From NCBI GenBank assembly GCA_014360905.1, contig JACIWW010000012.1, positions 8,011 to 72,010 of the forward strand: a DNA stretch of 64,000 nucleotides. The letters run 5' to 3'. Below are positions 15,614 through 57,000 of the stretch, in pieces. The translations under genes and the position numbers were made by a program. Numbering within the stretch: position 1 is the first letter of the stretch; every line of letters begins with the position of its first letter. This DNA comes from Chloroflexota bacterium (GTDB taxonomy: Bacteria; Chloroflexota; Anaerolineae; UBA2200). The notes beneath the pieces were generated by a model that searched no databases, was not told the origin of the DNA, and was given only the letters and a program-made list of their open reading frames with translations.

Positions 15614-15642
15614 TTGACAAATCAATCGAAATGTGCTATAAT
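15614..15642 (+). promoter_or_regulatory. Consensus sigma70-type promoter TTGACA-N17-TATAAT, followed by a ~380-nt leader before the AOR operon
   Basis: TTGACA at 15614-15619 and TATAAT at 15637-15642, spacer exactly 17 nt. No ORF lies between it and 16028. Confidence 0.55.
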
Positions 15643-16027
15643 TATCTTGCAAATTCAAAAATCATAGTGCAACCGAGTTCGCGCTGAGCGCGCCTGAGGC
15701 ATTCTCCTGACAGTGTACCTGGGAGATGGCTTAAGAGAAGTGCTGTGTCGTAGGGGTCACAGCCTCCGACCTGTCTCCTCCCCCTGGGAGGAACGGGCGT
15801 TAGGGTACGGGGAGCAATTCCTGTGCCTGCCGTGTTTGCGAAGGAGGCGAATTCCAATCGAGTTAGCGATTGGCTATTTGCCTCCTTCTTGAATTTTATG
15901 GAGGGAATTGGGCAGCGTTTGCAGATTCACACTCAGAGAGGAGGTGGTGTGCAGGCAGTAGAACCCTTTGGACGTCCGTACGTAGACGCTACATTTCTTG
16001 ATCAATTTGGAGGAGGAGAGGAAAGAA

Positions 16028-16891
16028 ATGTCACAAAAGATGCAGGACAGAATTTCGGAACTGCAGGAGCAATTGCGGCAGGGCGTGATCAGCCGACGTG
16101 AATTCTTGCGCTATGTGACGTTGCTGGGTGTGTCGCTGGGAGCGGCGGAGGCTTTGGCTGCCTGCGCGCCCAAGCCCACACCGACCGTGGCGCCGCCTAC
16201 AGTGGCACCACCAACGGCACCACCGCCTACAACGGCACCACCACCGCCCACAGTTGCCCCCACGGCTCCACCGCCCGCAGCCGAGAAGCAAGCTTTGGCT
16301 GGGCACATGCTGCGCTTTAACCCCGCCATCTGCACCGGCTGCCTCATCTGCGCGGTAGCCTGCGCTGACAAGTGGGCCACGGAGTACTTCCCGGAGGAAG
16401 CCGCCAAGGGTGTCAACCTGGAATTCTCCCGCATTCGCCCCATGCGCTCGCAGTACGTGGATATCATCAACGTCTGCCAGGACTGCCGCCTGATTGAGTG
16501 GGCGGAAGGCTCAACTAAAGCGCCGTGCGAGCAGGTTTGCCCACAGGGAGCGATTTCAGTGGTGCCCGAAGGGCAGGGCAAGCCCGGCTACACCGGCATG
16601 GGCTACCTGAACGTAGACCGCGACCTGTGCCTTGGCCTTGATCTCTGCGGGCGCTGTCTGGAGGTCTGCGAGGACCAGTTCGGCAGCGGCATCTCCTTTG
16701 ACCCCATCGAGAAGAAGGCGCAAATCTGCACGCGTTGCGGCGGGTTGCCCACCTGCGTCGAGGTCTGCCCAGAGCCTGGCGCGCTGCTGTTCGTACCGTT
16801 GCAGACCAACGGCCGCTATTGGGCACAAACGCCAGAAGAGTACTTTGAACTTACCTATGCCAAGTTGTTCGCGGAGAGGAGGGACGTATAA
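16028..16891 (+). CDS. TAT-exported lipoprotein-type poly-[4Fe-4S] ferredoxin subunit with Pro/Thr-rich linker. Likely electron-transfer partner of the AOR.
   Basis: RBS GGAGGAGGAGAGG before ATG 16028. Twin-arginine SRREFLRY. Lipobox LAACAP. PTVAPP repeats. At least 4 Cys clusters (CTGCLICAVAC, CQDC...C, CLGLDLCGRCLEVC, CTRCGGLPTCVEVCP). Confidence 0.7.
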   Translation: MSQKMQDRISELQEQLRQGVISRREFLRYVTLLGVSLGAAEALAACAPKPTPTVAPPTVAPPTAPPPTTAPPPPTVAPTAPPPAAEKQALAGHMLRFNPAICTGCLICAVACADKWATEYFPEEAAKGVNLEFSRIRPMRSQYVDIINVCQDCRLIEWAEGSTKAPCEQVCPQGAISVVPEGQGKPGYTGMGYLNVDRDLCLGLDLCGRCLEVCEDQFGSGISFDPIEKKAQICTRCGGLPTCVEVCPEPGALLFVPLQTNGRYWAQTPEEYFELTYAKLFAERRDV

Positions 16892-18930
16892 TGGCCGAGT
16901 TAAAGGGTGCTACAGGAAAGATCGCACGTGTGGATCTGACCACAAAGAAAGTAACAGTCGTCGAGCCGCCAGTTGATGTATACAAGAAATTCCTCGGCGG
17001 CGAGGCGCTCGGGCTCTACTTTATGGTCGCGGAAGGCCTTATTGACCCCAAGGTGGAGCCGTTCAGCCCACAGAACATGGTGCAGTTCATGATCGGGCCG
17101 GTGACCGGCATAGGGCCCAATGCTCGGTCCGTGATCGTCACCAAGAGCGCGTACAACTTTATGACCGTCACGACGTCGGGTGGCCGCGCAGCGGCAGAAC
17201 TCAAGTTTGCTGGCTGGGACGGCATCCAGGTTGTGGGTAAGTCGGACAAGCCCGTCTACATCGCGGTGGTAGACGACAACATCGAGATCCGCGATGCCAG
17301 CCATATCTGGGGCATGGGCACCGAAGAGGCGGAATTGGAACTGCTCAAGTCGGTGCTAGCGCCCAACGAGTGGCGTGAGAGTATCCTCACCGACCGGGAT
17401 CTAACTCCAGAGTGGGCAGCGCTGCGCCCGGTCAAGCGCAAGGGCATCGGCGCCAAACGGCTGGCGGCGGCCTGGGTCATCGGCCCCGGCGGCGAAAACG
17501 GCGTCTGGTACGCCAACGTCATCACCGAGGGTGCGCGCGCCCATGGCCGCTACGGCGCTGGGGCGATTGTTGGCTCCAAGAATCTGAAGGGCATCGTCAT
17601 CCGCGGCACCAAGGGACACATGCTGGCTGACAAAGGCAAGTTCCTGCAACTGGCCAAAGAGATTCAGGCTTCCGAAGCCACCAACTACTTCTGGCGCTCC
17701 TTCGGCACAGCCGGCATCGGCGCCCGCTGCGCGAACGCTGAGGATGCCTTCCCCATCCGCAACTGGCAGTGGGGCGCCTGGGCGGATCCGATGGTTGTCA
17801 AAGCACTGGAAGGGCCGTGGATGGATGCCGCTAGCTTTGTCAAGCAGATGGCCTGCCCTGGCTGCACCTTGCACTGCATGTACCTCACTGAAATCACCAG
17901 CAAGGACCCGCTCATGGACGGCGTCATCACCGACATGCCCGACTGGGAGGCCATGGGCATGGTTGGCGGCAACCTGGGTTACTGCGAACTGGAAGGCACC
18001 ACGCCCAGCGATCAGTGGAAGGGTGACCACTGGGATTTGATGGAAGCCCTCGCCAAGACCCAGTATACCACCTTCCTCCATGACAACAATGGACTCGACT
18101 ACATCGAGGGTGGCGCGCTGCTGGCTATGCTGATGGAGCTCATCCAGCGCAACCTCATCACCCCAGCCGATCTGGATGGCATCAACCTCAAATGGGGCGA
18201 TGTCCATGCCGTGGATGCCATTATCAAGAAGATCGCGCACAAGGAAGGCATCGGCGCTGTGCTGGCCAAGGGCACCTACGAGACGGCCAAGTACTTTGCC
18301 GAAAAGAAGGGCAAGCCGGAGATCATGAATTACTCCATGACTGGCCATCGCTATACCCAGCCCGCGCACGACGTCCGCGGCTTTGACAAGGACGCTCTGG
18401 AGTACGTGACGGTGGAGCGGCCCTGCGAACACACCGGAGGCGGCGGCGCCGGGTTCATGAAGAAGGACTATCCCGCCGCCATTGCCGGGCAGAATACCCA
18501 GGCCACGCACAACTCCTTGGTCATATGCTCTTTCGCTGCTGGCAACTGGGCGGGCAAGATCGCGGCCATGGTGCAGGCAGCCACCGGCTGGACCGACTTT
18601 ACTGAGGACGACGTACCCAAGGTCGGCGCCCGCGCCTATGCCCTGGCCAGGATCTTTAACCTCACGACGCAAGGGATCAAGGACCCGAAGAAAGAATGGG
18701 ATAACCTTAACCTCTTCCCGCCTCGCTGGTTCTACGATCCACTGCCCACTGGCATCGGCAAGGGGCGTGTGGCGTACGAGGGCAAGCCAGAGGTGTTATT
18801 CAATGAAGCCCTGCCCGCTTACTGGAAGACCAGAGGCTGGAGCGAGGACAAGGGCGTGCCTCTCGCCGACACGCTCAAAGCCCTTGGCATTGACGACATC
18901 GCCGAACCGTACGCCGCCAAACTGCGCTAG
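16891..18930 (+). CDS. aor: Aldehyde:ferredoxin oxidoreductase family (tungsten/molybdopterin AOR)
   Basis: 679 aa. AOR N-terminal domain (MAELKGATGKIARVDLTTKKV...GGEALGLYF) and AOR C-terminal domains. RBS GGAGAGGAGGG. Overlaps the upstream stop by 1 nt. Confidence 0.9.
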   Translation: MAELKGATGKIARVDLTTKKVTVVEPPVDVYKKFLGGEALGLYFMVAEGLIDPKVEPFSPQNMVQFMIGPVTGIGPNARSVIVTKSAYNFMTVTTSGGRAAAELKFAGWDGIQVVGKSDKPVYIAVVDDNIEIRDASHIWGMGTEEAELELLKSVLAPNEWRESILTDRDLTPEWAALRPVKRKGIGAKRLAAAWVIGPGGENGVWYANVITEGARAHGRYGAGAIVGSKNLKGIVIRGTKGHMLADKGKFLQLAKEIQASEATNYFWRSFGTAGIGARCANAEDAFPIRNWQWGAWADPMVVKALEGPWMDAASFVKQMACPGCTLHCMYLTEITSKDPLMDGVITDMPDWEAMGMVGGNLGYCELEGTTPSDQWKGDHWDLMEALAKTQYTTFLHDNNGLDYIEGGALLAMLMELIQRNLITPADLDGINLKWGDVHAVDAIIKKIAHKEGIGAVLAKGTYETAKYFAEKKGKPEIMNYSMTGHRYTQPAHDVRGFDKDALEYVTVERPCEHTGGGGAGFMKKDYPAAIAGQNTQATHNSLVICSFAAGNWAGKIAAMVQAATGWTDFTEDDVPKVGARAYALARIFNLTTQGIKDPKKEWDNLNLFPPRWFYDPLPTGIGKGRVAYEGKPEVLFNEALPAYWKTRGWSEDKGVPLADTLKALGIDDIAEPYAAKLR

Positions 18931-19214: not shown

Positions 19215-20141
19215 GTGATAATGCAAGAACAAAGGACGTGGAATTATAATGAATTCTTCTACCGCAATTATGGCATCTTCACGGAAGAGGAACAGCGCCG
19301 CATCAGGGATGCCAGAGTAGTAGTTGCTGGCTGTGGCGGTATCGGCGGGGTACTTGCGGTCGCTCTGGCACGCATGGGTATCAGCCACTTGGTGCTTATG
19401 GACCCTGAAAGCTACGAACCTTCGAACATGAACCGGCAGATTGCCTGTTTTTGCGAGAACATTGGCAAGAACAAGGCGCGTTGTATCGAAGAGCAGATAC
19501 GTTGCATTAATCCAGAGGCTGATGTTACGGTCTATGAGCGCGCCTTGGTATACGATGAAATCGAAGAGATTGCCAAACTGGGCGATGTCATCGCCCCGGC
19601 GATGGATGAATGGCCACTAAGCTTGATGGCGCTGGAAATCATTCGCAAATCCAAGCCCGCCGTGATGGCTTATCCCGTGGGCGCATTGGGACGCGTCTCC
19701 GTCTTCACTGCGGACAGCCCCACCGTGGCCGAATGCTTGGTGATGCCCTATGGATTTGGCTATCATGAATTGCAGGAGTATACTACGCGCCCGGACGCGC
19801 GGTGGCTTCTCTTGTATTATGTTACAGAAGGTCAGTGGAGGGAGGACTGGTTCGCGCAATGGGTGGAGGGCAAGCTCCCGCATGCCCAGATTTGTCCCAT
19901 TGTCTGGATTACCGGGACATTGGCGGCGCTGGAAATCATCAAACTGGTTAGTGGTAAATGGAAACCTGTTATTTCTCCCTATTATTGGTATATTACGCCG
20001 TCGCGAGCGCGTATCCGAAAGTTCGGGCTGAGGCGCAAATTGGCTTCGCGGCTATCGCGGCACAAGGCGCTGAGGGAACAGATGATCCGCTTGGCGCGCT
20101 CGAAAGCATTTGTACGCTTTTTCACACGTCTGATTGACTAG
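19215..20141 (+). CDS. ThiF/MoeB/HesA-family E1-like adenylyltransferase
   Basis: Rossmann GxGxxG motif VVVAGCGGIGGVLAVALARMGI. Typical ThiF-family core. GTG at 19215 or ATG at 19221. Confidence 0.7.
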   Translation: MIMQEQRTWNYNEFFYRNYGIFTEEEQRRIRDARVVVAGCGGIGGVLAVALARMGISHLVLMDPESYEPSNMNRQIACFCENIGKNKARCIEEQIRCINPEADVTVYERALVYDEIEEIAKLGDVIAPAMDEWPLSLMALEIIRKSKPAVMAYPVGALGRVSVFTADSPTVAECLVMPYGFGYHELQEYTTRPDARWLLLYYVTEGQWREDWFAQWVEGKLPHAQICPIVWITGTLAALEIIKLVSGKWKPVISPYYWYITPSRARIRKFGLRRKLASRLSRHKALREQMIRLARSKAFVRFFTRLID

Positions 20142-20158: not shown

Positions 20159-20662
20159 ATGAAACGATGGCTCTCCTTCCCCAATCTTCTGGCTCTCGTG
20201 GCAGTGGTTCTCATGGTCATGGGCATTACCCGCCCTTGGTGGAGCCTGACCTTGTTTGGCAATGAAAGCGATATTTATGTTTATCAGATCGTGGGCCCGC
20301 TCCGTGAACTCTTGGGCTACAAACGCAGTCCGCAGATGCTCCTTCTGACCAGGGTATTGATTGGCGCCGTGGTTCTGGTTGCATTGGGCAGTGTATTGCG
20401 CGGCTGGCCTGGACGGATCCTGATTGCCCTCGGAGGCATTGCTATCCTGCTGGGGGTCTCGCGCTTCCTGGGCAGAATTGCTGAGGTCGCGGAGGGGTTC
20501 AATGTGCCCATCCAGGGCCATGGCATTGGTGACTATGGTGGTTTTGCCAAAGTGGAAGTGAGCACTCGGCTGCGCACAGGGCTGTACCTGACAAGAGCGG
20601 GTGGTATAGTAGCCTTGCTAGCCAGCTTGCTGCACAGTATCATGCAACCGCGCCGGAAGTGA
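20159..20662 (+). CDS. Small integral membrane protein (4 predicted TM helices), unknown function
   Basis: RBS GGAGTGACGG. Hydrophobic segments. Confidence 0.5.
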   Translation: MKRWLSFPNLLALVAVVLMVMGITRPWWSLTLFGNESDIYVYQIVGPLRELLGYKRSPQMLLLTRVLIGAVVLVALGSVLRGWPGRILIALGGIAILLGVSRFLGRIAEVAEGFNVPIQGHGIGDYGGFAKVEVSTRLRTGLYLTRAGGIVALLASLLHSIMQPRRK

Positions 20663-20769: not shown

Positions 20770-22218
20770 ATGCTTCATGAGATCAACCAATTGTTGGCTG
20801 AATGGCGGCAGGGCCGGCTCAGCCGACGTAGCTTTATCCGCTACGCTACGCTTTTGGGCTTGTCTTTGGGAGCAGCCGAAGCACTGGCTGCTTGCGCACC
20901 TTCTCCAACGCCTACAGCGGCCCCTACTCCTGTCCCTACACCTACAGCCACATTCATACCTAGTCAGATCGCCGGTGAAGACGCCGAGGTGCCAACCCCC
21001 GAATGGGTGCCAACACCCCTACCGCCCATGACGCCTACGCCGACCATTACCTGGCCCAAGCCAACTCCCACGCCGGTGATGTGGGAACCAGCCATGTGGG
21101 CTTGCCCTTCTTGTACAGAGCGCTTCTCCACGCAGGAGGAGCTCGTCAAGCACATCCTGGCGAAGCATGCACGCAAGATTCCCGGAGCCCGGCGCGTGGA
21201 CCAACCCACCTATGCCCGTTTCCTGACTGACCAGGTGGCGCGCTTTGACCAGCGCAATACCGTCTTCTCGCGTGTGATGTGGGATAAGGATTACCAGGAA
21301 CAGATTAGCAAAGTAACGTTGCGGCCAAGGCGCGAGACAGTGGAGGAAATGATCAAGGGCAGAGCGCTAGTCGCTGGTGCCATTTATGCGGACGACGTCG
21401 CCGGCAGCCTGGCGCCCAATTACCGCGGCTACAGTGGCCATGTGCACGGATATGGCGGGCTGTATGGGTGGGACGACCCAGTGAGTGCGGAACGCCTACC
21501 CGTGACCGACAAAGCAGAGATGTCGGAGCATATCAAGACCGTGGCACGCTTTTACGGCGCCGACCTGGTGGGGATTTGCGCAATCAACCCGCTATGGGTA
21601 TACTCGCATTACTATGACCGCGAAACCGGCGAATATGGAGAACTGGAAATCCCGTACAAATATGCCATTGTGATGGGGCTGGAGATGGACTTTGCCTGCA
21701 TCAATCAGTCCCCTGGCTTTGAAGCCAGTGCGGCAACGGCGCTGATTTATTCGAAGATGGCGGAAGTAACGGCCAAGCTAGCCAAGTACATCCGTGCTTT
21801 GGGTTACGAAGCGGTGCCCTCTGGAAATGACACGATGCAGAATATTCCACTAGCCATTGATGCCGGCTTGGGCGAAATCGGCCGGCTAGGCTTGCTACTC
21901 ACGCCCGAATTCGGACCACGGCAACGCCTCTGCAAGGTGCTGACAAACTTGCCGCTGGCAACAGACAAACCCATTGACTTTGGCATGCAGCGCTTTTGCG
22001 AGATGTGTCTTTTCTGTGCCCATGCCTGCCCCGCGAAGGCCATCCCCTTTGGCGAGCGTTCGCTGGAGCGGACTTCCATCTCCAACCGGCCAGGCATTTT
22101 GCGCTGGACGGTGAACGTGGGCAACTGCTACCTGTTCTGGCGTGCCAATGGCGGCACAGATTGCTCGAACTGCGTCGCAGCATGCCCATGGGGCCAGCAG
22201 AATCGTCCCTGGCTCTAG
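20770..22218 (+). CDS. TAT-exported RdhA/QueG-superfamily Fe-S (corrinoid-type) reductase, reductive-dehalogenase-like. N-terminal twin-arginine lipoprotein signal, Pro/Thr linker and a C2H2-type zinc-finger motif.
   Basis: Twin-arginine SRRSFIRY. Lipobox LAACAP. Finger CPSCTERFSTQEELVKHILAKH (C-x2-C-x12-H-x4-H). Family motifs RFYGADLVGI and AGLGEIGRLGLLLTPEFGPRQRL. Fe-S motifs FCEMCLFCAHACP (C-x2-C-x2-C-x3-CP) and C-x12-CSNCVAACP. Confidence 0.6.
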   Translation: MLHEINQLLAEWRQGRLSRRSFIRYATLLGLSLGAAEALAACAPSPTPTAAPTPVPTPTATFIPSQIAGEDAEVPTPEWVPTPLPPMTPTPTITWPKPTPTPVMWEPAMWACPSCTERFSTQEELVKHILAKHARKIPGARRVDQPTYARFLTDQVARFDQRNTVFSRVMWDKDYQEQISKVTLRPRRETVEEMIKGRALVAGAIYADDVAGSLAPNYRGYSGHVHGYGGLYGWDDPVSAERLPVTDKAEMSEHIKTVARFYGADLVGICAINPLWVYSHYYDRETGEYGELEIPYKYAIVMGLEMDFACINQSPGFEASAATALIYSKMAEVTAKLAKYIRALGYEAVPSGNDTMQNIPLAIDAGLGEIGRLGLLLTPEFGPRQRLCKVLTNLPLATDKPIDFGMQRFCEMCLFCAHACPAKAIPFGERSLERTSISNRPGILRWTVNVGNCYLFWRANGGTDCSNCVAACPWGQQNRPWL

Positions 22219-22294: not shown

Positions 22295-22774
22295 ATGTTC
22301 GATGTGAACAAAGTGGATGCCATCATCGAGAAGCATGGAGCGGAACAGCGTGCTCTGACTGCTATGCTGCAGGACATCCAGGGCGAGTACAACTATTTGC
22401 CTCGTGAAGCTTTGGAGCATCTAGCGCAGAAGATGAAGTTACCTCTGATACAGGTGTATCAAGTCGCCAGGTTCTACAGAGCTTTCAGCCTGGAGCCGCG
22501 CGGCAAGCATTCCATCACGGTCTGCTTGGGTACTGCCTGCCACGTACGTGGCGGCGTTGCTGTCGCAGACCAGGTGGGGCGCTTGCTCGGCATAAAGCCG
22601 GGGGAAACGACCAAGGACAGGCGCTTCTCCTTTGACACCGTCAATTGCCTGGGCTGCTGCGCCCTGGGCCCCGTGATGGTTGTGGATGGCCAGTACTATG
22701 GCAAGATGGCTGCCAGCAAGGTGGAGCGCGTGCTCGCTAAATACTCGGGAGAGGAGGTTGCTACCAATGCCTAG
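22295..22774 (+). CDS. NuoE/HoxE/HndA-like [2Fe-2S] thioredoxin-fold subunit of an NADH-dependent oxidoreductase
   Basis: Cys motifs C-x4-C...C-x3-C (VCLGTACHV...NCLGCCALGP). RBS AAGGAGGAA. Confidence 0.85.
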   Translation: MFDVNKVDAIIEKHGAEQRALTAMLQDIQGEYNYLPREALEHLAQKMKLPLIQVYQVARFYRAFSLEPRGKHSITVCLGTACHVRGGVAVADQVGRLLGIKPGETTKDRRFSFDTVNCLGCCALGPVMVVDGQYYGKMAASKVERVLAKYSGEEVATNA

Positions 22775-24620
22775 GCTAACATCACGAGCCGAGTTCGAAG
22801 CGTGGCGCCAGTCCATACTTGCGAGCTGGGATCCAAGCAAACCCTGTATTACCGTATGCGGAGGAACAGGCTGTAGCGCCTTGGGTGCGAAAGAAGTCAC
22901 TGCCGCTCTGGGGCGTGAACTGAAAAAGCAAGGCTTACAGGACAAGGTAGATCTCAAGATGACTGGCTGCCATGGCTTCTGTGAACGAGGGCCTTTGGTC
23001 GTCGTCTACCCCCAGCATATCTTTTACCAGAGCGTGACGGCGGATGATGTCCCCGACATCGTCTCTGAGACGCTCATCAAAGGAAACCCCCTCGAGCGCA
23101 AGCTGTACAAAGATCTGGTGACCGGAGAGCCAATCGTCTATGAACCGGATGTCCCTTTCTACCGCGAACAACACCGCATTTTGATGAAGTACAATGGCCT
23201 GATTATCCCTACCAGGATTCAGGACTATATTGCCATCGGTGGGTATCAGGCGTTGTGCAAAGCTCTTTTCGAGATGAGCCCAGAGCAGGTGATTGAGGAA
23301 ATCAAGCGCTCTGGTCTGCGTGGCCGCGGTGGCGCTGGCTTTCCCACGGGTCGCAAGTGGGAAGAATGCCGCCGCGCTGATGGAGATATCAAGTATGTCA
23401 TCTGCAATGCCGACGAGGGCGACCCAGGTGCCTATCAAGACCGTAGCTTGGTCGAAGGCAACCCGCACAGCATCCTGGAGGGCATCATCATCGGCGCGTA
23501 CGCTGTTGGCGCTCACGAAGGCTTTATCTATATCCGTCATGAATACCCTCTGGCGGTCGAACACATCACCCGTGCCGCAGAGCAGGCTGAAGAGTACGGG
23601 CTGCTGGGGAAGAATATCCTTGGCTCAGGTTTCGATTTCACCTTCAAGGTGCATCGCGGGGCAGGCGCCTTCGTTTGTGGCGAGTCCAGTGCTCTGATGC
23701 GCTCCATCGAAGGCTATGCTGGCGAGCCGCGCGCGAAGCGCATTCATGCCACCGAAAAAGGGCTATGGGAGCGCCCCACCGTGCTGAACAACGTCAAGAC
23801 GTGGGCTTCGGTACCCCACATCATCAACAATGGCGCGGATTGGTTCGCTCAAATGGGCACGGAGACGAGCAAAGGGACGATGGTCTTTTCGCTAGTGGGC
23901 AAGGTCAACAACACCGGCCTGGTGGAGGTGCCCATGGGCGCGACTCTGCGCCATCTCGTGTACGACATTGGCGGTGGCATTTCCAGCGGCAAGAGATGTA
24001 AAGCTGTACAGACTGGCGGGCCATCAGGCGGTTGCATCCCGGAGCGCTTGCTCGACCTGCCCGTGGACTATGAAGCGCTGACCGAAGCCGGTTCCATCAT
24101 GGGTTCCGGTGGCCTCATCGTCATGGATGAGGACACTTGCATGGTGGACGTAGCGCGCTACTTCCTGCACTTTACCATGGAGGAATCCTGTGGCAAGTGT
24201 ACTGCCTGCCGCGAAGGAAGCCGACGCATGTACGAAATCCTGGAACGCATCGTGCATGGAAAGGGTCAGGAAGGAGACATTGAACGGTTGCAAGAAATTG
24301 GCACCACGATGATCAATGGCTCACTCTGTGCGTTAGGCCGCATGGCTCCGAACCCGGTTCTGAGCACCATCCGCTATTTCCGGGAGGAATACGAGGCCCA
24401 TATCCGCGACAAGCGCTGCCCAGCGGCGGTCTGCAAGGACCTGATCACCTATTCCATCATCGCCGAGAACTGCACCGGCTGTGGCGTTTGCCTACGCAAT
24501 TGCCCGCAAGGCGCCATCACTGGTGAAAAGAAACAGGTCCATCACATTGACCCAAGCAAGTGCATCCGTTGTGGCATCTGCCGCGAAGTCTGCAGATTCG
24601 ATGCGATCAAGGTAGAATAG
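22767..24620 (+). CDS. NuoF/HoxF/HndC-like NADH-binding FMN/[4Fe-4S] subunit with N-terminal 2Fe-2S domain and C-terminal 2x[4Fe-4S] ferredoxin domain
   Basis: RBS GAGGAGG before ATG 22767 (overlaps upstream gene end). FMN/NADH motifs GRGGAGFPTGRKW. SLBB domain. C-terminal CTGCGVCLRNCP and CIRCGICREVC. Confidence 0.85.
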   Translation: MPRLTSRAEFEAWRQSILASWDPSKPCITVCGGTGCSALGAKEVTAALGRELKKQGLQDKVDLKMTGCHGFCERGPLVVVYPQHIFYQSVTADDVPDIVSETLIKGNPLERKLYKDLVTGEPIVYEPDVPFYREQHRILMKYNGLIIPTRIQDYIAIGGYQALCKALFEMSPEQVIEEIKRSGLRGRGGAGFPTGRKWEECRRADGDIKYVICNADEGDPGAYQDRSLVEGNPHSILEGIIIGAYAVGAHEGFIYIRHEYPLAVEHITRAAEQAEEYGLLGKNILGSGFDFTFKVHRGAGAFVCGESSALMRSIEGYAGEPRAKRIHATEKGLWERPTVLNNVKTWASVPHIINNGADWFAQMGTETSKGTMVFSLVGKVNNTGLVEVPMGATLRHLVYDIGGGISSGKRCKAVQTGGPSGGCIPERLLDLPVDYEALTEAGSIMGSGGLIVMDEDTCMVDVARYFLHFTMEESCGKCTACREGSRRMYEILERIVHGKGQEGDIERLQEIGTTMINGSLCALGRMAPNPVLSTIRYFREEYEAHIRDKRCPAAVCKDLITYSIIAENCTGCGVCLRNCPQGAITGEKKQVHHIDPSKCIRCGICREVCRFDAIKVE

Positions 24621-24632
24621 AGGAGACAACAC

Positions 24633-26627
24633 ATGGTAGAACTCACTATTGATGGACAAAAAGTACAGGTTGAAGAAGGAACAACCATACTAGAAGCGGC
24701 GCGCAAGGTGGGCATCGAAATCCCCACCCTTTGCAGCCATCCCGACCTCAAGCCGTATGGCGCTTGCCGCGTTTGTGTCGTTGAGGTCAACCGCAAAGGA
24801 CGCTCTGTGGTCAGCACTTCCTGTGATTACCCGGTGGAAGAGGGGATGGAGGTCAAGACCAATTCCCCCGAAGCTGTCCGTACGCGCAAGATGATGATTG
24901 ACCTCTTGCTCTCGCGCGCTCCCAACGTGCGGCCATTACAGCTTCTGGCGAAGCAGTATGGCATCGAGAAGGCCAGCTTTCCCACGGATCATCCGGAGGA
25001 AGATTGCATCCTCTGTGGGCTCTGTGTGCGTGCGTGCGACGAAGTTGCGCAGAAGAACGTGATTGGCCTTGTGGATCGCAGCCAAAAGCGCCAAGTGAGC
25101 ACGCCTTTTGGTCAGCCCTCTCCAGAATGTGCCACCTGTGGCAAGTGTATCCCCTATTGTCCGACCGGCGCCATTGCCCATGTGCCCGGCATCGTGGTCA
25201 AGGGCGTGGGCGGGCTGTGGGTACGGCTGCGCCAAGTGGTGCAGTTGGGACTGTTGGCGCTGTTCCTGTACCTCGTGTGGAACACCACCAGAAAGGGAGT
25301 AGAGTCGCTGCCAATCAACCTCTTCAGCCGCTTCGATCCACTGATGGCGCTTGTCTCCATGCTGGGCTCCAAGCGCTTGATTGCCAATATGATCCCCGGC
25401 CTGGTCACCATCGTTGTCACGCTTTTGCTCGGCAGGGTCTGGTGCGGTTGGATCTGCCCTCTGGGGACGGTGCTGAACCTGTATGGTCCCAACAAAAACC
25501 CGCGCATCCCTGACAAACTGCGCCAGGTCAAATATTTCCTGCTCTTTGCCTTCATCGCCGCGGCATTGCTGGGCAGCCTGGCTCTGATGTGGTTAGATCC
25601 CATCACAATTTTTGTCCGTCCATTGGCTGGAGCGGTCTTTCCGGCCATTCTGCAGAAGCAAGCACCCGTGGCTGTTCCCAAGGGACTGGCTGCTGCGCGC
25701 GTAGCGGAGATTCCTTTGCGCCCTGTGGTGCATCCATTGCTGGCAGTGCCTTTGGTGATCGTGCTTGCCCTGAACTTGTTCGCCAAGCGTTTCTGGTGTC
25801 GCTACCTTTGCCCTCTGGGCGCGTGGGTAGCCTTCCTGTCCAAATTCTCCTGGATCAAGCGCTACATAGACAAGAAGATCTGTCTGGAATGGGGACGCTG
25901 CATCCCAGTCTGCCCTATGGATACCATTGCCTATGAGGATCTGAGCAGCGATCCTGGAGAATGCCTGATGTGCCTAGACTGCCTTGGCGTCTGTCCGTCT
26001 GGCGCTACCAAGTTTGGCCCGCAGCCGAAGCCTGGTTTCGGCTACAGTTATGATCCCTCACGCCGGCAGGTGCTGGCCTCGCTGGTGGTTGGTTTAGGTG
26101 GAGCAGCACTGCTCAAGACCGATATGCTCAAGAGCAAGAACCCCTACCAACTCCGACCACCGGGAGCGAAGGAGGAAGAGTTCCTGACCAAGTGTATTCG
26201 CTGTGGCCAGTGTGTCAAGGTCTGTCCGAACAATGCTCTGCATCTAGCCTTGTTTGAGGCTGGGCTGGAATCCATCTGGTCGCCGTTGCTTATCCCGCGC
26301 ATCGGCAACTGTGACTATGACTGCAATGCTTGCGGACAAGTCTGCCCGACCCAAGCCATTCCCAAACTGCCACTGGAAGAGAAACGCAAAGCCAAGATTG
26401 GCACAGCCGTGGTGGATTTCGACAAGTGCATCCGCTGTCTGCTCTGTGTTACGAGGTGTCCCGTGGAGGGGGCATTGGTACAGGGCGCAGTCGAAGGCCG
26501 CAAGGGCAAGTACCCCATCGTCAACCCAGACCTATGCATTGGCTGCGGCACTTGCGAGTTCGTCTGCCCGGTAGAAGGCGAATCAGCAATCCGCGTGCAG
26601 GCTGTAGGCACTGTCCCGCGTACCTAA
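24633..26627 (+). CDS. Fusion protein: NuoG/HydA N-terminal [2Fe-2S]+[4Fe-4S] module :: NapH/MauN-like integral-membrane polyferredoxin (CxxxCP TM motifs) :: C-terminal 4x[4Fe-4S] ferredoxin domains
   Basis: N-terminus [34 protein letters not shown]...C-x-x-C is NuoG-like. TM segments with CGWICPLG and CRYLCPLG are NapH-like. C-terminal clusters [33 protein letters not shown] and [12 protein letters not shown]. Confidence 0.6.
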
Positions 26628-26637
26628 TACGTACAAC

Positions 26638-26680
26638 CTCCCGCTGGTCAGAAACCTACGGGAGGTTGCTTTCTATTGTC
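26638..26680 (+). terminator. Rho-independent terminator
   Basis: CAACCTCCCG-loop-CGGGAGGTTG followed by CTTTCTATTGT. Confidence 0.55.
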
Positions 26681-26767
26681 AGCAAAGCAATTTGGTGGTA
26701 TAATAAAGTAGTAACGCAGCCAACTCATTCCCCATGTCATGAGGTGGTGAGGCTGAGAAAAGGAGGG

Positions 26768-26944
26768 ATGATGCCTCGTCTTGGCGTACCAGAACTGCTG
26801 ATCATACTCGTGATTGTGATCTTAATCTTTGGTGTGGGCAGGCTGACAGAACTCGGCGCTGCCCTGGGTAGAGCAATCCGCGAGTTCCGCGAGGCAACGA
26901 AGCCAGAGGATGATAAGAAGGAAGCAAGAGGGAATAAGCAGTGA
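26768..26944 (+). CDS. tatA: Twin-arginine translocase TatA/E-family protein
   Basis: RBS AAGGAGGG. Sequence [43 protein letters not shown] (TM helix plus amphipathic helix). Embedded in the track ORF 26330..26944. Confidence 0.8.
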
Positions 26945-27348
26945 ATCTTTTTAATATCGGTCCCATGGAATTGCTCTTCATTCTGATCTTGGCTTTGCTT
27001 ATCTTTGGTCCACGCCGTTTGCCACAGATAGCAAGGGACATTGGCAGGGCCATCGCGGAGTTCAGGAAGGCTTCCGAGGAACTGACTACGGAGCTGCGCA
27101 AGGAAATAGAGAGCACCGAGGCCGCGCTGGAAGAAGCCCAGAAAGAAGTCGCGGAATCTGCAAAGGCGGCTTTAGAGGGAACGACTCCGACGAAAGAGAC
27201 GCCTGCTCCACCACAACAGGGCAGGGAGGCAGCAGAGACTACCGTACCTTCCCTAGAGGAGTCCGCAGCAGAAACAAGCCTACCGGAAGAGTCCCCCGCA
27301 TCGTCGGAGCAGGGTGAGGACAAATCACCCGATGAATTGCTCGGCTGA
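26941..27348 (+). CDS. Second TatA/TatB-family protein (longer acidic C-terminal tail)
   Basis: [47 protein letters not shown] start overlaps the tatA stop. Confidence 0.7.
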
Positions 27349-27413
27349 AGAACGAGGCTTCCACTATTCGCAGGGAGCGCCTTAGAACGAATGCGCCATA
27401 GGTGAAAACAGCC

Positions 27414-28304
27414 ATGGAAGAATGGTTCGCGTTGGTGCAGAGCGCTCTTTCTGCTCTGCCCCGTCCGAGCGACACGGCAGAAATGCTTCACAACGCGGGA
27501 CTGCTGCCCGCCGAGTGGGACATGCTGGTAAGCTCTTACTTGTGCGAGCCCCCACCTTCTGTGGATCTATTGGCAGAATGGTTGCCCTATACTGCACCGC
27601 AATTATGTAAGGCGCGTCTGACTGCTTTGCTAGAAAAGGGCTTCCTGCAGGCGTTGAACGAGCAGGAATGTCTCCTGACCGACAGAGCAGTAGAGTTAAT
27701 CGAAACGTGGGTTGAGCGAAAACGGGCACAACTCGCTGCCCAGGCTCCTCTCCCTTGGCGAGACCTGCGTCAACTGGCGCATCTACTGTCGCGCATCGTG
27801 CAGGCAGCCCTTGCTGCGCCTCCTCCACCGCATAAAATTCACTTGCTGGGCAATCAGCGCTTGGCGCCCTCTGCCGATGCAGCACCGATGATGCACATTG
27901 ACCAATCCTTGACGGATTTGCTCTGGTTTCGCGACGATGCTCATATTGCTGCTTGGCGTGAGCATGGCTTCGATGGCCCCTCCATCGAAGTGCTAACCCT
28001 TGTGTGGCGTGGCGAGGCAACAGATCTGGATGGGCTGAGTGCTATGCTCAGCGAGCAGCGTGGCTATTCTCGGCAGGACTATGCCCGTGTTGTGGCGCGC
28101 TTGCAGGCGCGTGACTTTGTGCATGTCTCCGCAGCAGAGTTGAGCGTAACTCCCGCCGGTCGTGCCGTGCGCGAGGAAATCGAAAGCACTACCGATCGTT
28201 ATTTCATGTTCCCCTGGACTGCCTTGTTGCCGATAGAGGTACGACAACTGCGCGATCTACTGCAGTGCTTCGTGCATGCGAGCAGCGCGCCCTTTACGCC
28301 ATGA
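27414..28304 (+). CDS. Hypothetical protein, possibly with tandem winged-helix (MarR-like) domains, low-confidence regulator
   Basis: AGGTGA RBS before ATG 27414. No strong motif, helical. Confidence 0.35.
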   Translation: MEEWFALVQSALSALPRPSDTAEMLHNAGLLPAEWDMLVSSYLCEPPPSVDLLAEWLPYTAPQLCKARLTALLEKGFLQALNEQECLLTDRAVELIETWVERKRAQLAAQAPLPWRDLRQLAHLLSRIVQAALAAPPPPHKIHLLGNQRLAPSADAAPMMHIDQSLTDLLWFRDDAHIAAWREHGFDGPSIEVLTLVWRGEATDLDGLSAMLSEQRGYSRQDYARVVARLQARDFVHVSAAELSVTPAGRAVREEIESTTDRYFMFPWTALLPIEVRQLRDLLQCFVHASSAPFTP

Positions 28305-28355
28305 AGCGTTTGCTATGAACAGATTGGTCAAATCATTTGACGGAGGACGATCATC

Positions 28356-29129
28356 ATGCCCCAATTCCCTTGGCTCGATCCCAATCCCTTCTATTTCCCC
28401 GGTGGCTCAGTGGGTTGCCTGCTCATCCACGGCTTCACCGGTTCGCCGCCCGAGATGCGTCCCATGGGCGAGTACCTGGCCCAACAGGGCCTGACCGTCT
28501 CTGGCCCGCTCCTGGCTGGGCATGGCACGACCCACGAGGACCTAGCCCGCACCACCTGGGAGGACTGGTATGCTTCGGTCGAGGCGGATTATGACCATTT
28601 GCAACAGCATTGTCAGCAAGTGTTCGTAGCTGGGTTTTCCTTGGGTTCGCTCCTGGCCATGCATCTGGCTGTGCAACACAAACTGAGCGGTCTCATCCTG
28701 CTTGCCCCGGCGCTGCAGGTGCGGGACTGGCGGCTGCAATTCGTGCCACTCCTGCGCTTTTTCATCAAAGAAATGCCCAAGGACAACGACCCCAAACATT
28801 CGGATTTGACCGACCCTGAAGCCTACAAGCGCTTCTGGTCGTACGACATTATTCCCATCCCCGCCAGTTACCAGTTATACCGTCTGCAGAAAGTGGTGCG
28901 CGCGGAACTGGGGCACATCCGTGTTCCTACGCTGGTCATCTACTCCACCAGGGATATGTCCATCTCTTCACAGAGCGGACCGCTGACGTACCAGCGCATT
29001 GGCTCGGAGGATAAGGAACTGCTCGTGCTGCACAACTCCGGGCACGGCCTGGTCGTGGACAGCGAACGCCAGTTCGTCTTCCAGAAAGTGTACGAGTGGA
29101 TCACGGCACGCCAGCGCATCAGCGCATAG
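28356..29129 (+). CDS. Alpha/beta-hydrolase carboxylesterase
   Basis: RBS GGAGGA. LLIHGFTGSP oxyanion region. Nucleophile elbow GFSLGS. Confidence 0.8.
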   Translation: MPQFPWLDPNPFYFPGGSVGCLLIHGFTGSPPEMRPMGEYLAQQGLTVSGPLLAGHGTTHEDLARTTWEDWYASVEADYDHLQQHCQQVFVAGFSLGSLLAMHLAVQHKLSGLILLAPALQVRDWRLQFVPLLRFFIKEMPKDNDPKHSDLTDPEAYKRFWSYDIIPIPASYQLYRLQKVVRAELGHIRVPTLVIYSTRDMSISSQSGPLTYQRIGSEDKELLVLHNSGHGLVVDSERQFVFQKVYEWITARQRISA

Positions 29130-54017: not shown

Positions 54018-57000
54018 GTTGCAGACACTCGATCCGAGGATAGGATACTGAAAGATGGGCAACAGTGCTGCAAACCTGGGGCACTGACAGAGTTGCAGAC
54101 ACTCGATCCGAGGATAGGATACTGAAAGACCATTCCGTCCACCAATGCACCTTCCACACAATCAAGTTGCAGACACTCGATCCGAGGATAGGATACTGAA
54201 AGCACCAAAGCCCTAAATGGTCTTTTATCGGCACAGTCGTTGCAGACACTCGATCCGAGGATAGGATACTGAAAGTCGCTGCCCTTGACGCCGCCCGTTG
54301 GTCTGTGCCTTGTTGCAGACACTCGATCCGAGGATAGGATACTGAAAGATACAACCTGGTCTCCACGTGCCGCCGACAAAAACCAGTTGCAGACACTCGA
54401 TCCGAGGATAGGATACTGAAAGAAAAAGTAACCGATTTATTGCGAAACGTTTTAGAGAAGTTGCAGACACTCGATCCGAGGATAGGATACTGAAAGAATG
54501 ATGCTTTTGCTGTTTCGACAACGGATACTAGCAGTTGCAGACACTCGATCCGAGGATAGGATACTGAAAGGTTTTTAACTATTGCTTTACTATAAATGGC
54601 TGAGATTGTTGCAGACACTCGATCCGAGGATAGGATACTGAAAGTTCTTACCCACAGGCGGGGGGCGGCAAGGGATTAGTGTTGCAGACACTCGATCCGA
54701 GGATAGGATACTGAAAGCGTGGCTGAGCCTAATGAGCATGGCGGTAGTGACCAGTTGCAGACACTCGATCCGAGGATAGGATACTGAAAGGCTACTGTGC
54801 CAGAAGCCTACGTTCGGGTCAGGGCCGTTGCAGACACTCGATCCGAGGATAGGATACTGAAAGGTATAAATTGTGCCCCCAGATACGCGCTTTGTATAGT
54901 GGTTGCAGACACTCGATCCGAGGATAGGATACTGAAAGTGTTGCGATGCGCTTGATTCCACAGGGCTGGCAAAAAGTTGCAGACACTCGATCCGAGGATA
55001 GGATACTGAAAGAGTCGCCAATCATGGCGTATACAATACCGCCCGTGTAGGTTGCAGACACTCGATCCGAGGATAGGATACTGAAAGGCTGAAAATTGAA
55101 GGCGACGCCGCCATCATCGTTTCAGTTGCAGACACTCGATCCGAGGATAGGATACTGAAAGCAATGCACAAAACGAAGGCCAATGGCAAAATAAACTAGT
55201 TGCAGACACTCGATCCGAGGATAGGATACTGAAAGTGAGATATCCGCCAAACTACACGCCTTGCATGAGGAAGTTGCAGACACTCGATCCGAGGATAGGA
55301 TACTGAAAGTATGTGGAAACGGCCATTGAGCATGTAGTGCCAGTAGGTTGCAGACACTCGATCCGAGGATAGGATACTGAAAGTTCGCTGAAACGCGAGT
55401 TGTACCCATTTCAGCGTGAGTTGCAGACACTCGATCCGAGGATAGGATACTGAAAGCTCGCCCTGTCCACATATGCGCATTTCTATGTATGCGTTGCAGA
55501 CACTCGATCCGAGGATAGGATACTGAAAGGAGTTGACGTTAGGCGCATGTATCAAATGGGCGTGCTAGTTGCAGACACTCGATCCGAGGATAGGATACTG
55601 AAAGAGGAGCCTCAGTGGTCGCTTCAACACCCCTGCGGTTGCAGACACTCGATCCGAGGATAGGATACTGAAAGATGCCGAACGAGCCCGCGATCTGCAG
55701 GAATGGCACATGTTGCAGACACTCGATCCGAGGATAGGATACTGAAAGTTGTGGCTGAGCCTAATGAGCATGGCGGTAGTGACCAGTTGCAGACACTCGA
55801 TCCGAGGATAGGATACTGAAAGAGTGCAGCGCGATAAGGTAATCGAGTATCTGTCCCCGAGTTGCAGACACTCGATCCGAGGATAGGATACTGAAAGTGC
55901 AAGTTCAAATGGTGCCAGTCAGGGTAAGCGCCGGTTGCAGACACTCGATCCGAGGATAGGATACTGAAAGTCATCAAAGAGATCACAAGCGACGCGGTAT
56001 ACCGCGTTGCAGACACTCGATCCGAGGATAGGATACTGAAAGTCAGCGACTGAATAAGCACGCTCTGTCCTAGGAGTTCGTTGCAGACACTCGATCCGAG
56101 GATAGGATACTGAAAGGTCGGTACTCACCCTGGAGTGGGATGAGGCTATTTATGTTGCAGACACTCGATCCGAGGATAGGATACTGAAAGCTTTTGGAGT
56201 GGTGTACCCAGGGATAGTTATCCGAGAAGTTGCAGACACTCGATCCGAGGATAGGATACTGAAAGAAACGTCCGCCACCAACTTGGCCAACGAATGGAAC
56301 ATGTTGCAGACACTCGATCCGAGGATAGGATACTGAAAGCTTGTCCAGGAATCGTTTTTGTGCAAATTTGCATCGTGTTGCAGACACTCGATCCGAGGAT
56401 AGGATACTGAAAGGTGTGCCGCCCAATAGCGTTCAGCCCACTCTCTCGATAGTTGCAGACACTCGATCCGAGGATAGGATACTGAAAGCAGGTGAAGAAG
56501 AAAAGGGCATTGCCAGGTTAGCAGCAGGTTGCAGACACTCGATCCGAGGATAGGATACTGAAAGCATCTTTCGTCCCTCCTTACCGCAATCCATCCGCTG
56601 GTTGCAGACACTCGATCCGAGGATAGGATACTGAAAGACTACTATGACTACGACGTTGGTGTAAGCGCTATACAGAGTTGCAGACACTCGATCCGAGGAT
56701 AGGATACTGAAAGGCCACGTCGCGGATTACGTTTGGCAAGTCACGCTCCCGGTTGCAGACACTCGATCCGAGGATAGGATACTGAAAGCTCAGCAAGTTC
56801 GGGAGTAAATGCCTCACGGACAGCCAGTTGCAGACACTCGATCCGAGGATAGGATACTGAAAGGCACCCGTTCAATTGTGTCCAGGACTGGTGCGTGGCG
56901 TTGCAGACACTCGATCCGAGGATAGGATACTGAAAGTTATGCGCATATGCAGTAATGCGTGGCAGATTATCCAGTTGCAGACACTCGATCCGAGGATAGG

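Follow-up and report, generated by a model that had tools for sequence, protein, structure and literature searches.

A BfuA-NapH-NapG fusion in a conserved Anaerolineae gene cluster: a predicted membrane-spanning link between a cytoplasmic Bfu core and exported oxidoreductases

An open problem of NapH-, NosR- and RdhC-type membrane modules is what their cytoplasmic Fe-S clusters do and which cytosolic partners serve them. This question is raised in an unusual form by a gene of a Chloroflexota bacterium (Anaerolineae; UBA2200), in which a possible partner is encoded in the same polypeptide. The window analysed here comprises 64,000 nucleotides of contig JACIWW010000012.1 (GenBank assembly GCA_014360905.1, positions 8,011 to 72,010); all window coordinates given below refer to its + strand. 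At 24633..26627, a single ATG-to-stop open reading frame (ORF) encodes a protein of 664 residues, which the first-pass annotation, made from the letters alone, described as a NuoG/HndD-like N-terminal Fe-S module fused to a NapH-type membrane polyferredoxin that would form an Fe-S chain from the FMN (flavin mononucleotide) of a NuoF-type neighbour towards the outer face. Domain searches resolve the product into a triple fusion of a WorA/BfuA-type, a NapH-like and a NapG-like part. We consider it rather probable that this protein is the membrane-spanning subunit of a Bfu complex whose catalytic partners are exported.

Architecture and reality of the fusion

The N-terminal module (residues 1-183; 24633..25181), delimited by profile searches and by its match to WorA, is predicted to be cytoplasmic. 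Pfam Fer2_4 matches residues 1-78 (E 5e-22), Fer4_Nqo3 and dicluster models match residues 123-181, and residues 2-183 resemble the N-terminus of the NADH-dependent [FeFe] hydrogenase (NF040763, E 5e-44), of HoxU and of NuoG. The cluster ligands are readily recognized as C34, C45, C48 and C64 for a [2Fe-2S] cluster, and as C125-C135 and C166-C176 for two [4Fe-4S] clusters. All 12 cysteines are conserved, and the module therefore has the 2Fe-2S and 4Fe-4S domains that characterize BfuA in the Bfu family. The stretch from C64 to C125 is free of cysteine, which indicates that the protein lacks the His-ligated cluster found in NuoG and HydA. A complex-I NuoG, HoxU or hydrogenase identity was rejected on these grounds together with the scores, which stay below the curated cut-offs for NuoG (TIGR01973, 106 vs 470 bits), HoxU (NF005745, 122.7 vs 333) and the [FeFe] hydrogenase A6 group (NF040763, 150.7 vs 765 bits), with the N-terminal ~180 residues alone being aligned.

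The best solved match of residues 2-183 is instead WorA (9mqx_A), both by sequence (E 2e-42) and by fold (rmsd, root-mean-square deviation, 1.6 Å over 181 columns, with 44% identity), and the alignment crosses the 'LLLSRAP' region with a single-residue gap only. WorA belongs to WorABCSL, the electron-bifurcating tungsten aldehyde oxidoreductase of Acetomicrobium mobile (PDB 9MQX; PMC12318220). It is a 'Type 2' BfuA without the clusters A3 and A5, in which electrons pass from WorS through A4, A2 and A1 to the BfuBC core, and it recruits WorS by means of a C-terminal Zn finger and helix (PMC12318220). The same pattern is found here, with A1, A2 and A4 kept and with both the His-ligated A3 and the cluster A5 missing, so that the sequence identifies the module as a Type-2 BfuA/WorA. 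The similarity ends at residue 183 of the fusion, corresponding to residue 185 of the 247 of WorA, after which the first transmembrane (TM) helix starts. The complex-I or hydrogenase identity given to the module by the first-pass annotation thus gives way to that of WorA.

The NapH-like module (residues 196-461; 25218..26015), defined by profile searches, hydropathy and an AlphaFold2 (AF2) model, comprises four TM helices and a cytoplasmic ferredoxin domain. It is matched by the NapH models TIGR02163 (E 3e-33) and PRK09477 (E 6e-29) and by two Fer4_5 models. Two CxxxCP motifs, CGWICPLG (C271/C275) and CRYLCPLG (C389/C393), lie where they had been pointed out, each directly after a hydrophobic helix. 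The ferredoxin domain, whose two motifs the first-pass annotation had not listed separately, carries a three-cysteine motif (C417/C423/C427) and a four-cysteine motif (C444-C454). The module thus has the four TM helices, the two CxxxCP motifs and the two C-terminal cysteine-cluster motifs of NapH-like proteins, and its cysteines are invariant across an alignment of 112 sequences. Regarding the first ferredoxin motif (residues 417-427; 25881-25913), it reads C-x-[E/D]-W-G-x-C-x3-CP in the subclade of the fusion, where W420 stands for a cysteine conserved in at least 90% of the family, leaving a three-cysteine site. Such a site could hold a [3Fe-4S] or a carboxylate-ligated cluster.

The NapG-like domain (residues 499-664; 26127..26627), recognized by profile searches and invariant cysteines, is predicted to be extracytoplasmic. 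The NapG model PRK09476 (E 1e-30) matches residues ~475-655, TIGR00397 matches as well (E 1e-27), and four [4Fe-4S] motifs lie at C521, C560, C599 and C635. The four C-terminal clusters of the first-pass annotation are thereby recovered, three of them with the CxxCxxCxxxCP spacing it had given to all and one as CxxxCxxCxxxCP. Their cysteines are invariant, as is an RPPG motif after TM5. In two close homologues, P0002 (777 residues) and P0009 (762 residues), this domain is longer, with a Pro/Thr-rich linker and a further 2x[4Fe-4S] ferredoxin domain added to it. The scores of the NapH models (115.4 vs 213 bits for TIGR02163; 101.2 vs 234 bits for PRK09477) and of the NapG models (106.8 vs 269 bits for PRK09476; 97 vs 178.85 bits for TIGR00397) also remain far below the curated cut-offs. 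All these equivalog scores indicate that the parts of the fusion are relatives, not orthologues, of NapH, NapG, NuoG, HoxU and HydA. Counted from the motifs, the whole protein may contain as many as about ten Fe-S clusters.

Hydropathy and the AF2 model place five TM helices at about residues 193-221, 251-266, 296-312, 368-380 and 477-495. This number lies within the four to six proposed earlier. The monomer model is confident overall (mean predicted local distance difference test score, pLDDT, 88.5; predicted TM-score 0.82), with lower values around residues 420-500 (pLDDT 64-80). At residues 477-498 (26061..26126), the alignment reveals an internal twin-arginine motif, DPSRRQVL, directly ahead of the weakly hydrophobic TM5. 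The arginine pair (residues 477-478) is kept in 111 of the 112 sequences, no helix is less hydrophobic than TM5 in 76, and every one of the 112 has at least two Lys/Arg within ~19 residues after it; in the window fusion, TM5 also has the highest crude deltaG(app) (6.1). These features, five helices with an arginine pair before a weakly hydrophobic fifth one and positive charges after it, are those of Sec/Tat dual targeting (Tat, twin-arginine translocation). They were described for the 'polytopic polyferredoxin' of MLMS-1, in which helices 1-4 are inserted by Sec and helix 5, bearing the same three features, by Tat, leaving the four-cluster domain outside (Tooke et al. 2017; PMC5449189). On sequence grounds, the NapH-NapG part of the fusion belongs to this class. 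The invariant internal Tat motif ahead of the NapG-like domain suggests that this domain is probably exported. The predicted topology has the N-terminus, the CxxxCP motifs and the NapH ferredoxin domain inside and the NapG-like domain outside, in agreement with positive-inside loops.

A single reading frame that joins three such parts could be produced by a frameshift or by a chimeric contig. This was examined by searching a collection of 5.8 billion proteins, in which 99 of the best 120 clusters at 90% identity are full-length matches (97-100% query coverage, 46-75% identity). These homologues are 650-690 residues long, apart from two with C-terminal extensions, and come from NCBI, JGI, ENA and Logan assemblies; their annotations read solely '4Fe-4S binding protein' or 'polyferredoxin'. 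Every cluster cysteine is conserved, and the junction residues W196, R200 and Q204 are invariant or nearly so. The fusion, which the first-pass annotation had proposed to look for in other genomes, is found in 12 species-representative genomes, whole in 11 and cut by a contig end in the twelfth (L056), all of them metagenome-assembled genomes (MAGs) of Anaerolineales or other Chloroflexota. The independent assemblies, the 12 genomes, the conserved junction and the confident single-chain model all contradict an artefact that joined two or three genes, the probability of which is negligible; the unusual fusion reported earlier is real and conserved.

The combination is restricted to a narrow clade, since among 1.84 billion representatives at 50% identity the BfuA-NapH junction is spanned by five proteins only. 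The other strong matches listed are stand-alone BfuA/WorA-like proteins of ~250 residues or BfuA joined to soluble domains. None of the 10 other long BfuA-containing proteins that were checked has a NapH/Fer4_5 module, the partners being MvhD/FlpD, AOR (the aldehyde oxidoreductase family) and other soluble domains. One protein, P0256 (667 residues), joins a BfuA-like N-terminal module straight to an AOR catalytic domain (AFOR_C).

Partner genes and conservation of the locus

The genes around the fusion form a same-strand string, overlapping or separated by short gaps, in which it stands ninth; those directly upstream encode the partners expected of a BfuA. BfuC (22295..22774) is a NuoE/HoxE-like 2Fe-2S subunit of thioredoxin-like type (PF01257, E 6e-49; HoxE and NuoE models). 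BfuB (22767..24620), identified by its set of Pfam domains, is a NuoF-like FMN/NADH subunit with an N-terminal PF01257-like 2Fe-2S domain, PF01512, PF10531, PF10589 and, at the C-terminus, 2x[4Fe-4S] domains matched by Fer4 dicluster models. Over nearly its full length, it matches the bifurcating HydB, NiFe-BfuB and WorB (7t2r_B, 7q4v_B, 8a6t_B, 9mqx_B) at E ~1e-230, and it aligns much less well to complex-I NuoF. BfuB has been defined by a Nuo51 FMN domain, an SLBB domain, a Nuo51 4Fe-4S domain and a 4Fe-4S ferredoxin-type domain (Schut et al. 2022), and the domain contents of BfuA, BfuB and BfuC encoded here all conform to that scheme. The flavoprotein neighbour called NuoF by the first-pass annotation is thus indeed present, as a BfuB of the bifurcating type with additional 2Fe-2S and 2x[4Fe-4S] domains.

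In a tblastn survey of the window proteins against 88 related loci, the genes of BfuC and BfuB (NuoE and NuoF) lie directly upstream of the fusion in every locus that has it. AOR is present in every such locus whose contig extends far enough, with Tat export presumably provided by the signal of its Fe-S subunit or by its own, and an RdhA-like gene is adjacent in most. NuoE, NuoF, AOR and RdhA-like genes are absent within 10 kb of all 65 distant plain NapH-NapG loci. Homologues of WorL, WorS, WorA, WorB and WorC form one same-strand string that is conserved across loci. The linkage data define a conserved core comprising the exported WorS/AOR pair, BfuC, BfuB and the BfuA-NapH-NapG fusion.

The string is led by a Moco/Tuco (molybdenum/tungsten cofactor) riboswitch aptamer at 15752..15862 (Rfam RF01055, 46.6 bits against a gathering threshold of 36, E 6e-8). 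About 110 nucleotides 5' of it lies a sigma-70-like promoter with TG (15614..15642; TTGACA-17-TATAAT, 12/12), called from its consensus match alone. The aptamer recurs upstream of the WorS-like gene in L007, the closest relative (2227-2338); at the gathering threshold it was not detected in L004, L013, L015, L016, L018 or L020. The riboswitch and promoter at its head tie the gene string to a pterin enzyme. The first of its genes (15998..16891) encodes the WorS-like protein, with 16 cysteines for four clusters, a Tat signal (SRREFLRY...LAAC) with a lipobox-like LAAC, and a Pro/Thr-rich linker. A sequence search of the PDB returned no match for it. The Tat motif is conserved in the orthologues of six further loci examined, among which L056 has RK for RR. 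The WorS-like gene ends in a stop codon that overlaps the start codon of the AOR-family (WorL) pterin oxidoreductase (16891..18930; Pfam AFOR_N and AFOR_C), which matches 1aor (E 8e-76) and WorL (9mqx_D, E 4e-71) in the PDB. These two best matches, the Pyrococcus furiosus AOR and the A. mobile WorL, have been assigned to WOR clade 87 by the authors concerned. The window AOR has no signal of its own and is presumably co-exported with the WorS-like protein. In L004, AOR itself has a Tat signal, a lipobox and a Pro/Thr-rich linker, and this locus also has tatA, tatA and tatC directly downstream.

Further along, a ThiF/MoeB-like protein (19215..20141; Pfam ThiF, E 1e-37) probably acts in maturation of the pterin cofactor; its gene is syntenic in L001, L016-L020, L056, L007 and L087. 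A multi-helix membrane protein of 167 residues without a Pfam match (20159..20662) is a candidate anchor, and its gene is kept between ThiF and the RdhA-like gene in L007, L010, L016-L020, L056 and L087. The RdhA-like corrinoid/Fe-S protein (20770..22218) has a Tat signal, a lipobox and a Pro/Thr-rich linker. It scores 200.6 bits with TIGR02486, above the cut-off of 160.35, has the two Fe-S motifs of the family, and matches PceA (4uqu, E 9e-55) across the corrinoid and Fe-S core; its Tat motif is conserved in all orthologues examined. After the linker, at residues ~110-134, it contains a C2H2 zinc-finger-like motif (W-x-C-x2-C-x-x-R-F...H-x3-4-H), which is unusual for a reductive dehalogenase. 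The motif is also found in the RdhA-like N-termini of L004, L009, L016 and L018, and the Pfam zf-C2H2 matches are weak. Downstream of the fusion follow TatA (26768..26944; PF02416, E 7e-18), with a promoter-like site (11/12) 5' of it at 26676-26704, and a TatA/TatB-family protein (26941..27348; PF02416, E 1e-15). Genes of the tat family also follow the polyferredoxin gene in L004, L007, L089, L092 and L093. What defines the system is missing from the earlier account: the exported pair of AOR and Fe-S protein, the RdhA-like protein, the Moco riboswitch and the tat genes.

Close relatives that are 61-77% identical in the NapH-NapG part reveal two other forms of the same locus. L007, L008 and L087 as well as L089, L092 and L093 share downstream TatA, TatA/B and HTH_67 genes, together with an alpha/beta hydrolase gene wherever the contig reaches. 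In the first three (P0018), the cargo is the same, NuoEF is missing, and an NfnB/NfnA-type domain for NADP(H) and FAD is inserted after TM4 (E ~1e-118 against Nfn-Bfu NfnA and ~1e-98 against NfnB). In L089, WorS, AOR, membrane-protein and RdhA-like genes precede a plain NapH-NapG protein of 494 residues, again without NuoEF, and L092 and L093 show the same downstream backbone beside a plain polyferredoxin. A pyridine-nucleotide module has thus been gained twice by different routes, which provides independent evidence of electron exchange between the cytoplasmic face of the polyferredoxin and the cytoplasm. In the window, the next genes after tat, at 27402-29129, encode a putative HTH_67-family regulator and an alpha/beta hydrolase; given their synteny in L007, L089, L092 and L093, they may be part of the system.

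Other observations concern further relatives and the remainder of the window. The distant plain loci in Anaerolineae (L021-L086 and L088) carry a DUF362 protein with a Tat signal and a lipobox directly upstream in 56 of 65 cases, for example at 1826-2845 of L055 (PF04015, E 2e-47). This suggests a separate pairing of an exported DUF362 protein with the polyferredoxin; with that partner, these loci have little bearing on the AOR/RdhA system and were rejected as a guide to function. In L091 (P0014; 1945-10515), a close plain NapH-NapG gene is followed by an Mbh/Mrp-type set (MbhD, three Proton_antipo_M, a NiFe large-subunit-like and a NuoH-like protein) that resembles energy-converting hydrogenase or complex I. 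The 3' end of the window (54090-64000) is occupied by a very large CRISPR array that reaches the window end, with a 37-nt repeat, GTTGCAGACACTCGATCCGAGGATAGGATACTGAAAG, at a period of ~73-75 nt in roughly 130 units. The array accounts for why this region lacks long ORFs, has a GC content of 0.50 and shows a purine skew, and the ORFs 5' of it, at ~41.7-53.8 kb on the same strand, may be cas genes.

Electron transfer between the two faces of the membrane

Taken with its gene context, the fusion is rather probably an 'A subunit' that spans the membrane, in a Wor-Bfu-type complex which is split between the two sides, and that links a cytoplasmic Bfu core to exported enzymes. The WorA-like domain would remain in the cytoplasm, with clusters A1, A2 and A4 docked on BfuB and BfuC, which would handle NAD(H), FMN and ferredoxin. 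From there, the NapH ferredoxin domain and the CxxxCP site would carry the chain on to the inner face of the membrane. The four-helix NapH-like module would form the membrane part, and the Tat-inserted TM5 would place the four-cluster NapG-like domain outside, where it would exchange electrons with the lipid-anchored WorS-like/AOR pair and, in most loci, with the RdhA-like reductase. Extracytoplasmic redox chemistry would thereby be coupled to the cytoplasmic NAD(H)/ferredoxin pool. Electrons from oxidation by AOR outside could travel inward and reduce NAD+ and ferredoxin, like those of the soluble WorABCSL, and/or be passed laterally to the RdhA-like enzyme, which could also be fed by NADH and reduced ferredoxin. 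The RdhA-like enzyme is an obligate electron acceptor. Sequence data show the domain identities, their conservation, the gene linkage and the Tat and topology signals; from these we infer that the NapG-like domain is exported, as well as the subunit contacts, the direction of flow, bifurcation and the crossing of the bilayer, by Fe-S hopping or by a bound quinone. The Fe-S chain from FMN towards the outer face that the first-pass annotation envisaged fits this gene context. Co-induction of a NapGH-like protein with PceA in Sulfurospirillum multivorans and the modular role proposed for NapH-like proteins (Meheust et al. 2021) also speak for the split complex. By our own estimate, inward electron transfer would be electrogenic and would build membrane potential, and outward transfer would dissipate it and give the corrinoid more reducing electrons.

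Several points weigh against this proposal. To our knowledge, no cofactor that bridges the ~30 Å bilayer exists in NapH-type proteins. The CxxxCP motifs lie beside invariant arginine residues, and this suggests that they are probably at the cytoplasmic interface. By sequence, the PDB contains no solved NapH-type membrane module, weak matches being confined to the ferredoxin subdomain; in the fold search, too, the top 50 matches all fall on the N-terminal module. The plain NapH-NapG of L089, which stands in the AOR/RdhA/Tat context, indicates that the membrane module works without the Bfu head, and such a plain module may normally communicate with quinone or ferredoxin. L006 and L015 lack an adjacent RdhA-like gene, and L013 has only a distant downstream copy. 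As we estimate it, there would be little thermodynamic room for electrons of aldehyde to move inward against the membrane potential and reduce NAD+ and ferredoxin by bifurcation. All members of the fusion clade come from uncultured MAGs.

The lack of a known bridging cofactor makes a quinone node the chief rival explanation, which we regard as possible but clearly less likely than the proposed split complex. According to this explanation, the NapH-like module would be a menaquinone/menaquinol site and not an Fe-S conduit. Electrons would cross as quinol, BfuABC would serve as the non-pumping head of an NADH(/ferredoxin):quinone reductase, and the NapG-like domain would work outside as in NapGH. 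This is consistent with the textbook role of NapGH as a quinol dehydrogenase, with the proposal that an NapGH-like protein links the quinone pool to PceA, and with Nuo-Bfu as a predicted quinone-linked Bfu complex (Schut et al. 2022). The absence of a cytoplasmic NAD(P)H module from L089 points the same way, and the invariant motifs of the two outer loops, N229/F231/S232 and P323/I324/T325/R329, could form a quinol pocket. Against it, no quinone-binding site has been defined in NapH-type proteins, the NapH and NapG equivalog scores are well below their cut-offs, and the elaborate cytoplasmic Fe-S chain and the two acquisitions of an NAD(P)H module suit direct transfer equally well.

Two further explanations assign the fusion other tasks. 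If the arginine pair were vestigial and the NapG-like domain stayed in the cytoplasm, the polyferredoxin would tether BfuBC or serve another membrane partner. The weak hydrophobicity of TM5 and the reduced AF2 confidence around it leave some room for this, yet the nearly universal arginine pair and the positive charges after TM5 are the very features that drive Tat-dependent insertion in the MLMS-1 homologue, tat genes are adjacent in many loci, and all candidate partner enzymes have Tat signals. We consider retention in the cytoplasm very improbable. Slightly less likely still is a role of the cytoplasmic domains in assembly or maturation, for instance in reductive activation or cofactor loading before Tat transport. 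The precedent is NapF of Wolinella succinogenes, which is reported to need the first CxxxCP of NapH for membrane attachment and to aid the maturation of NapA. A strictly linked BfuBC core with FMN and about six clusters would be expensive for maturation alone, and the NfnB-type domain in the sister variant P0018 is catalytic.

A bolder form of the split-complex proposal, which we put forward as a doubtful possibility, is a quinone-independent conduit made of Fe-S clusters only. It could import electrons electrogenically from extracellular aldehyde oxidation to NADH and reduced ferredoxin, or export them to RdhA. In the second variant, low-potential electrons of NADH and reduced ferredoxin, assisted by the membrane potential, would drive the Co(II)/Co(I) step of the exported reductive dehalogenase. 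If true, the import variant would represent a new, pump-free mode of energy conservation, and the export variant would be one answer to how RdhA obtains sufficiently reducing electrons.

Relation to known systems

A literature search for earlier accounts of the BfuA-NapH-NapG fusion, or of such a cluster in Anaerolineae or Chloroflexi, found none. The closest mention is one sentence on 'U-type' WORs (Feng et al.), which may be this system or a related one. The NapH-NapG fusion as such is already known and experimentally tested (Tooke et al. 2017; PMC5449189); its combination with BfuA has so far not been described. If the proposed assignment is true, it adds a third kind of membrane Bfu complex to the predicted Mbh-Bfu and Nuo-Bfu, and the first one whose BfuA adaptor itself crosses the membrane. 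For the problem of the cytoplasmic clusters raised at the outset, the partner would be BfuA or, in the sister variant, the inserted NfnB-type NADP(H) domain. The plain, NfnB-inserted and BfuA-fused forms (the last with BfuBC) at one conserved locus offer a ready comparative test system. The cluster further leads to the prediction that uncultured Anaerolineales have pterin enzymes of the AOR family and corrinoid enzymes at their outer face, tied to the NAD(H)/ferredoxin pool, with relevance for aldehyde and organohalide turnover in sediments and digesters; its interest is mainly for specialists in bioenergetics and in organohalide or tungsten enzymology.

The nearest relative is WorABCSL of A. 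mobile (Class IV WOR, Wor-Bfu), with which the cluster shares the WorS/WorL/BfuA/BfuB/BfuC set, the loss of the His-ligated A3 cluster and a full-length bifurcating BfuB. In contrast to WorA, with its Zn finger and helix as an adaptor for WorS, the fusion has a NapH-NapG membrane and exported module in that position. Its WorS-like protein or AOR bears a Tat signal, so that the catalytic pair is predicted outside. RdhA-like and tat genes lie within the cluster, and the hosts are Anaerolineales/Chloroflexota instead of Synergistetes or Firmicutes. Class V WORs (YdhV/YdhY of Escherichia coli, CsWOR41 of Cetobacterium) resemble it in the Tat signal on WorS, the outward-facing enzyme and the nearby tat genes. 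Unlike the cluster, which has a complete WorABC-type set, they are described without WorABC and are confined to WOR clade 41. The 2026 WOR classification keeps the cytoplasmic bifurcating Class IV apart from the Tat-exported Class V and does not mention Chloroflexi. With a WorABC-type set and a Tat-exported WorS, the cluster combines features of both classes, as judged by gene set and signals, and so joins what that classification separates.

The membrane part is closest to the polyferredoxin of MLMS-1 (Q1NSB0), which has the same five TM helices, the arginine pair before a weak TMD5, and three cytoplasmic and four outer cluster sites (PMC5449189). The fusion differs in its additional cytoplasmic BfuA module of ~190 residues and in its strict linkage, at the gene level, to BfuBC. 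Tooke et al. (2017; PMC5449189) noted polyferredoxin homologues in Chloroflexi and reported no physiological partner or function for the protein. The NapGH systems of E. coli and W. succinogenes and the Qdh of Sulfurospirillum multivorans likewise have four TM helices, two CxxxCP motifs, cytoplasmic cysteine clusters and a Tat-exported four-cluster NapG. However, they consist of separate polypeptides with menaquinol as donor and without an NADH/ferredoxin module, and the fusion scores below their equivalog cut-offs. In S. multivorans, induction of the reductive dehalogenase PceA is accompanied by that of the NapGH-like proteins of the organohalide-respiration region.

Among Bfu enzymes, Mbh-Bfu and Nuo-Bfu (Schut et al. 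2022) share with the present cluster a BfuABC core that is genetically embedded in a predicted membrane complex. They have ion-pumping arms of the Mbh or complex-I type, whereas here a NapH-type polyferredoxin with an exported domain is fused to BfuA. The predicted membrane Bfu enzymes of Schut et al. (2022) are of the Mbh and Nuo types only, and NapH, transmembrane helices and dehalogenases are not mentioned there. Finally, RdhC/PceC and NosR (Meheust et al. 2021; Buttet et al. 2018) likewise have a Fer4_5 module, the proposed route of electrons between the inside or the membrane and extracytosolic oxidoreductases, dehalogenases included. In the proposal of Meheust et al. (2021), NapH-like proteins serve as modular units of transmembrane electron transfer, with donors that are mostly unknown. 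RdhC/PceC and NosR have a flavinylated FMN-binding domain on the extracytosolic side, and no cytosolic donor has been identified for them, whereas the fusion presents a NapG-like domain on the predicted outer side and an explicit BfuABC set on the inner one.

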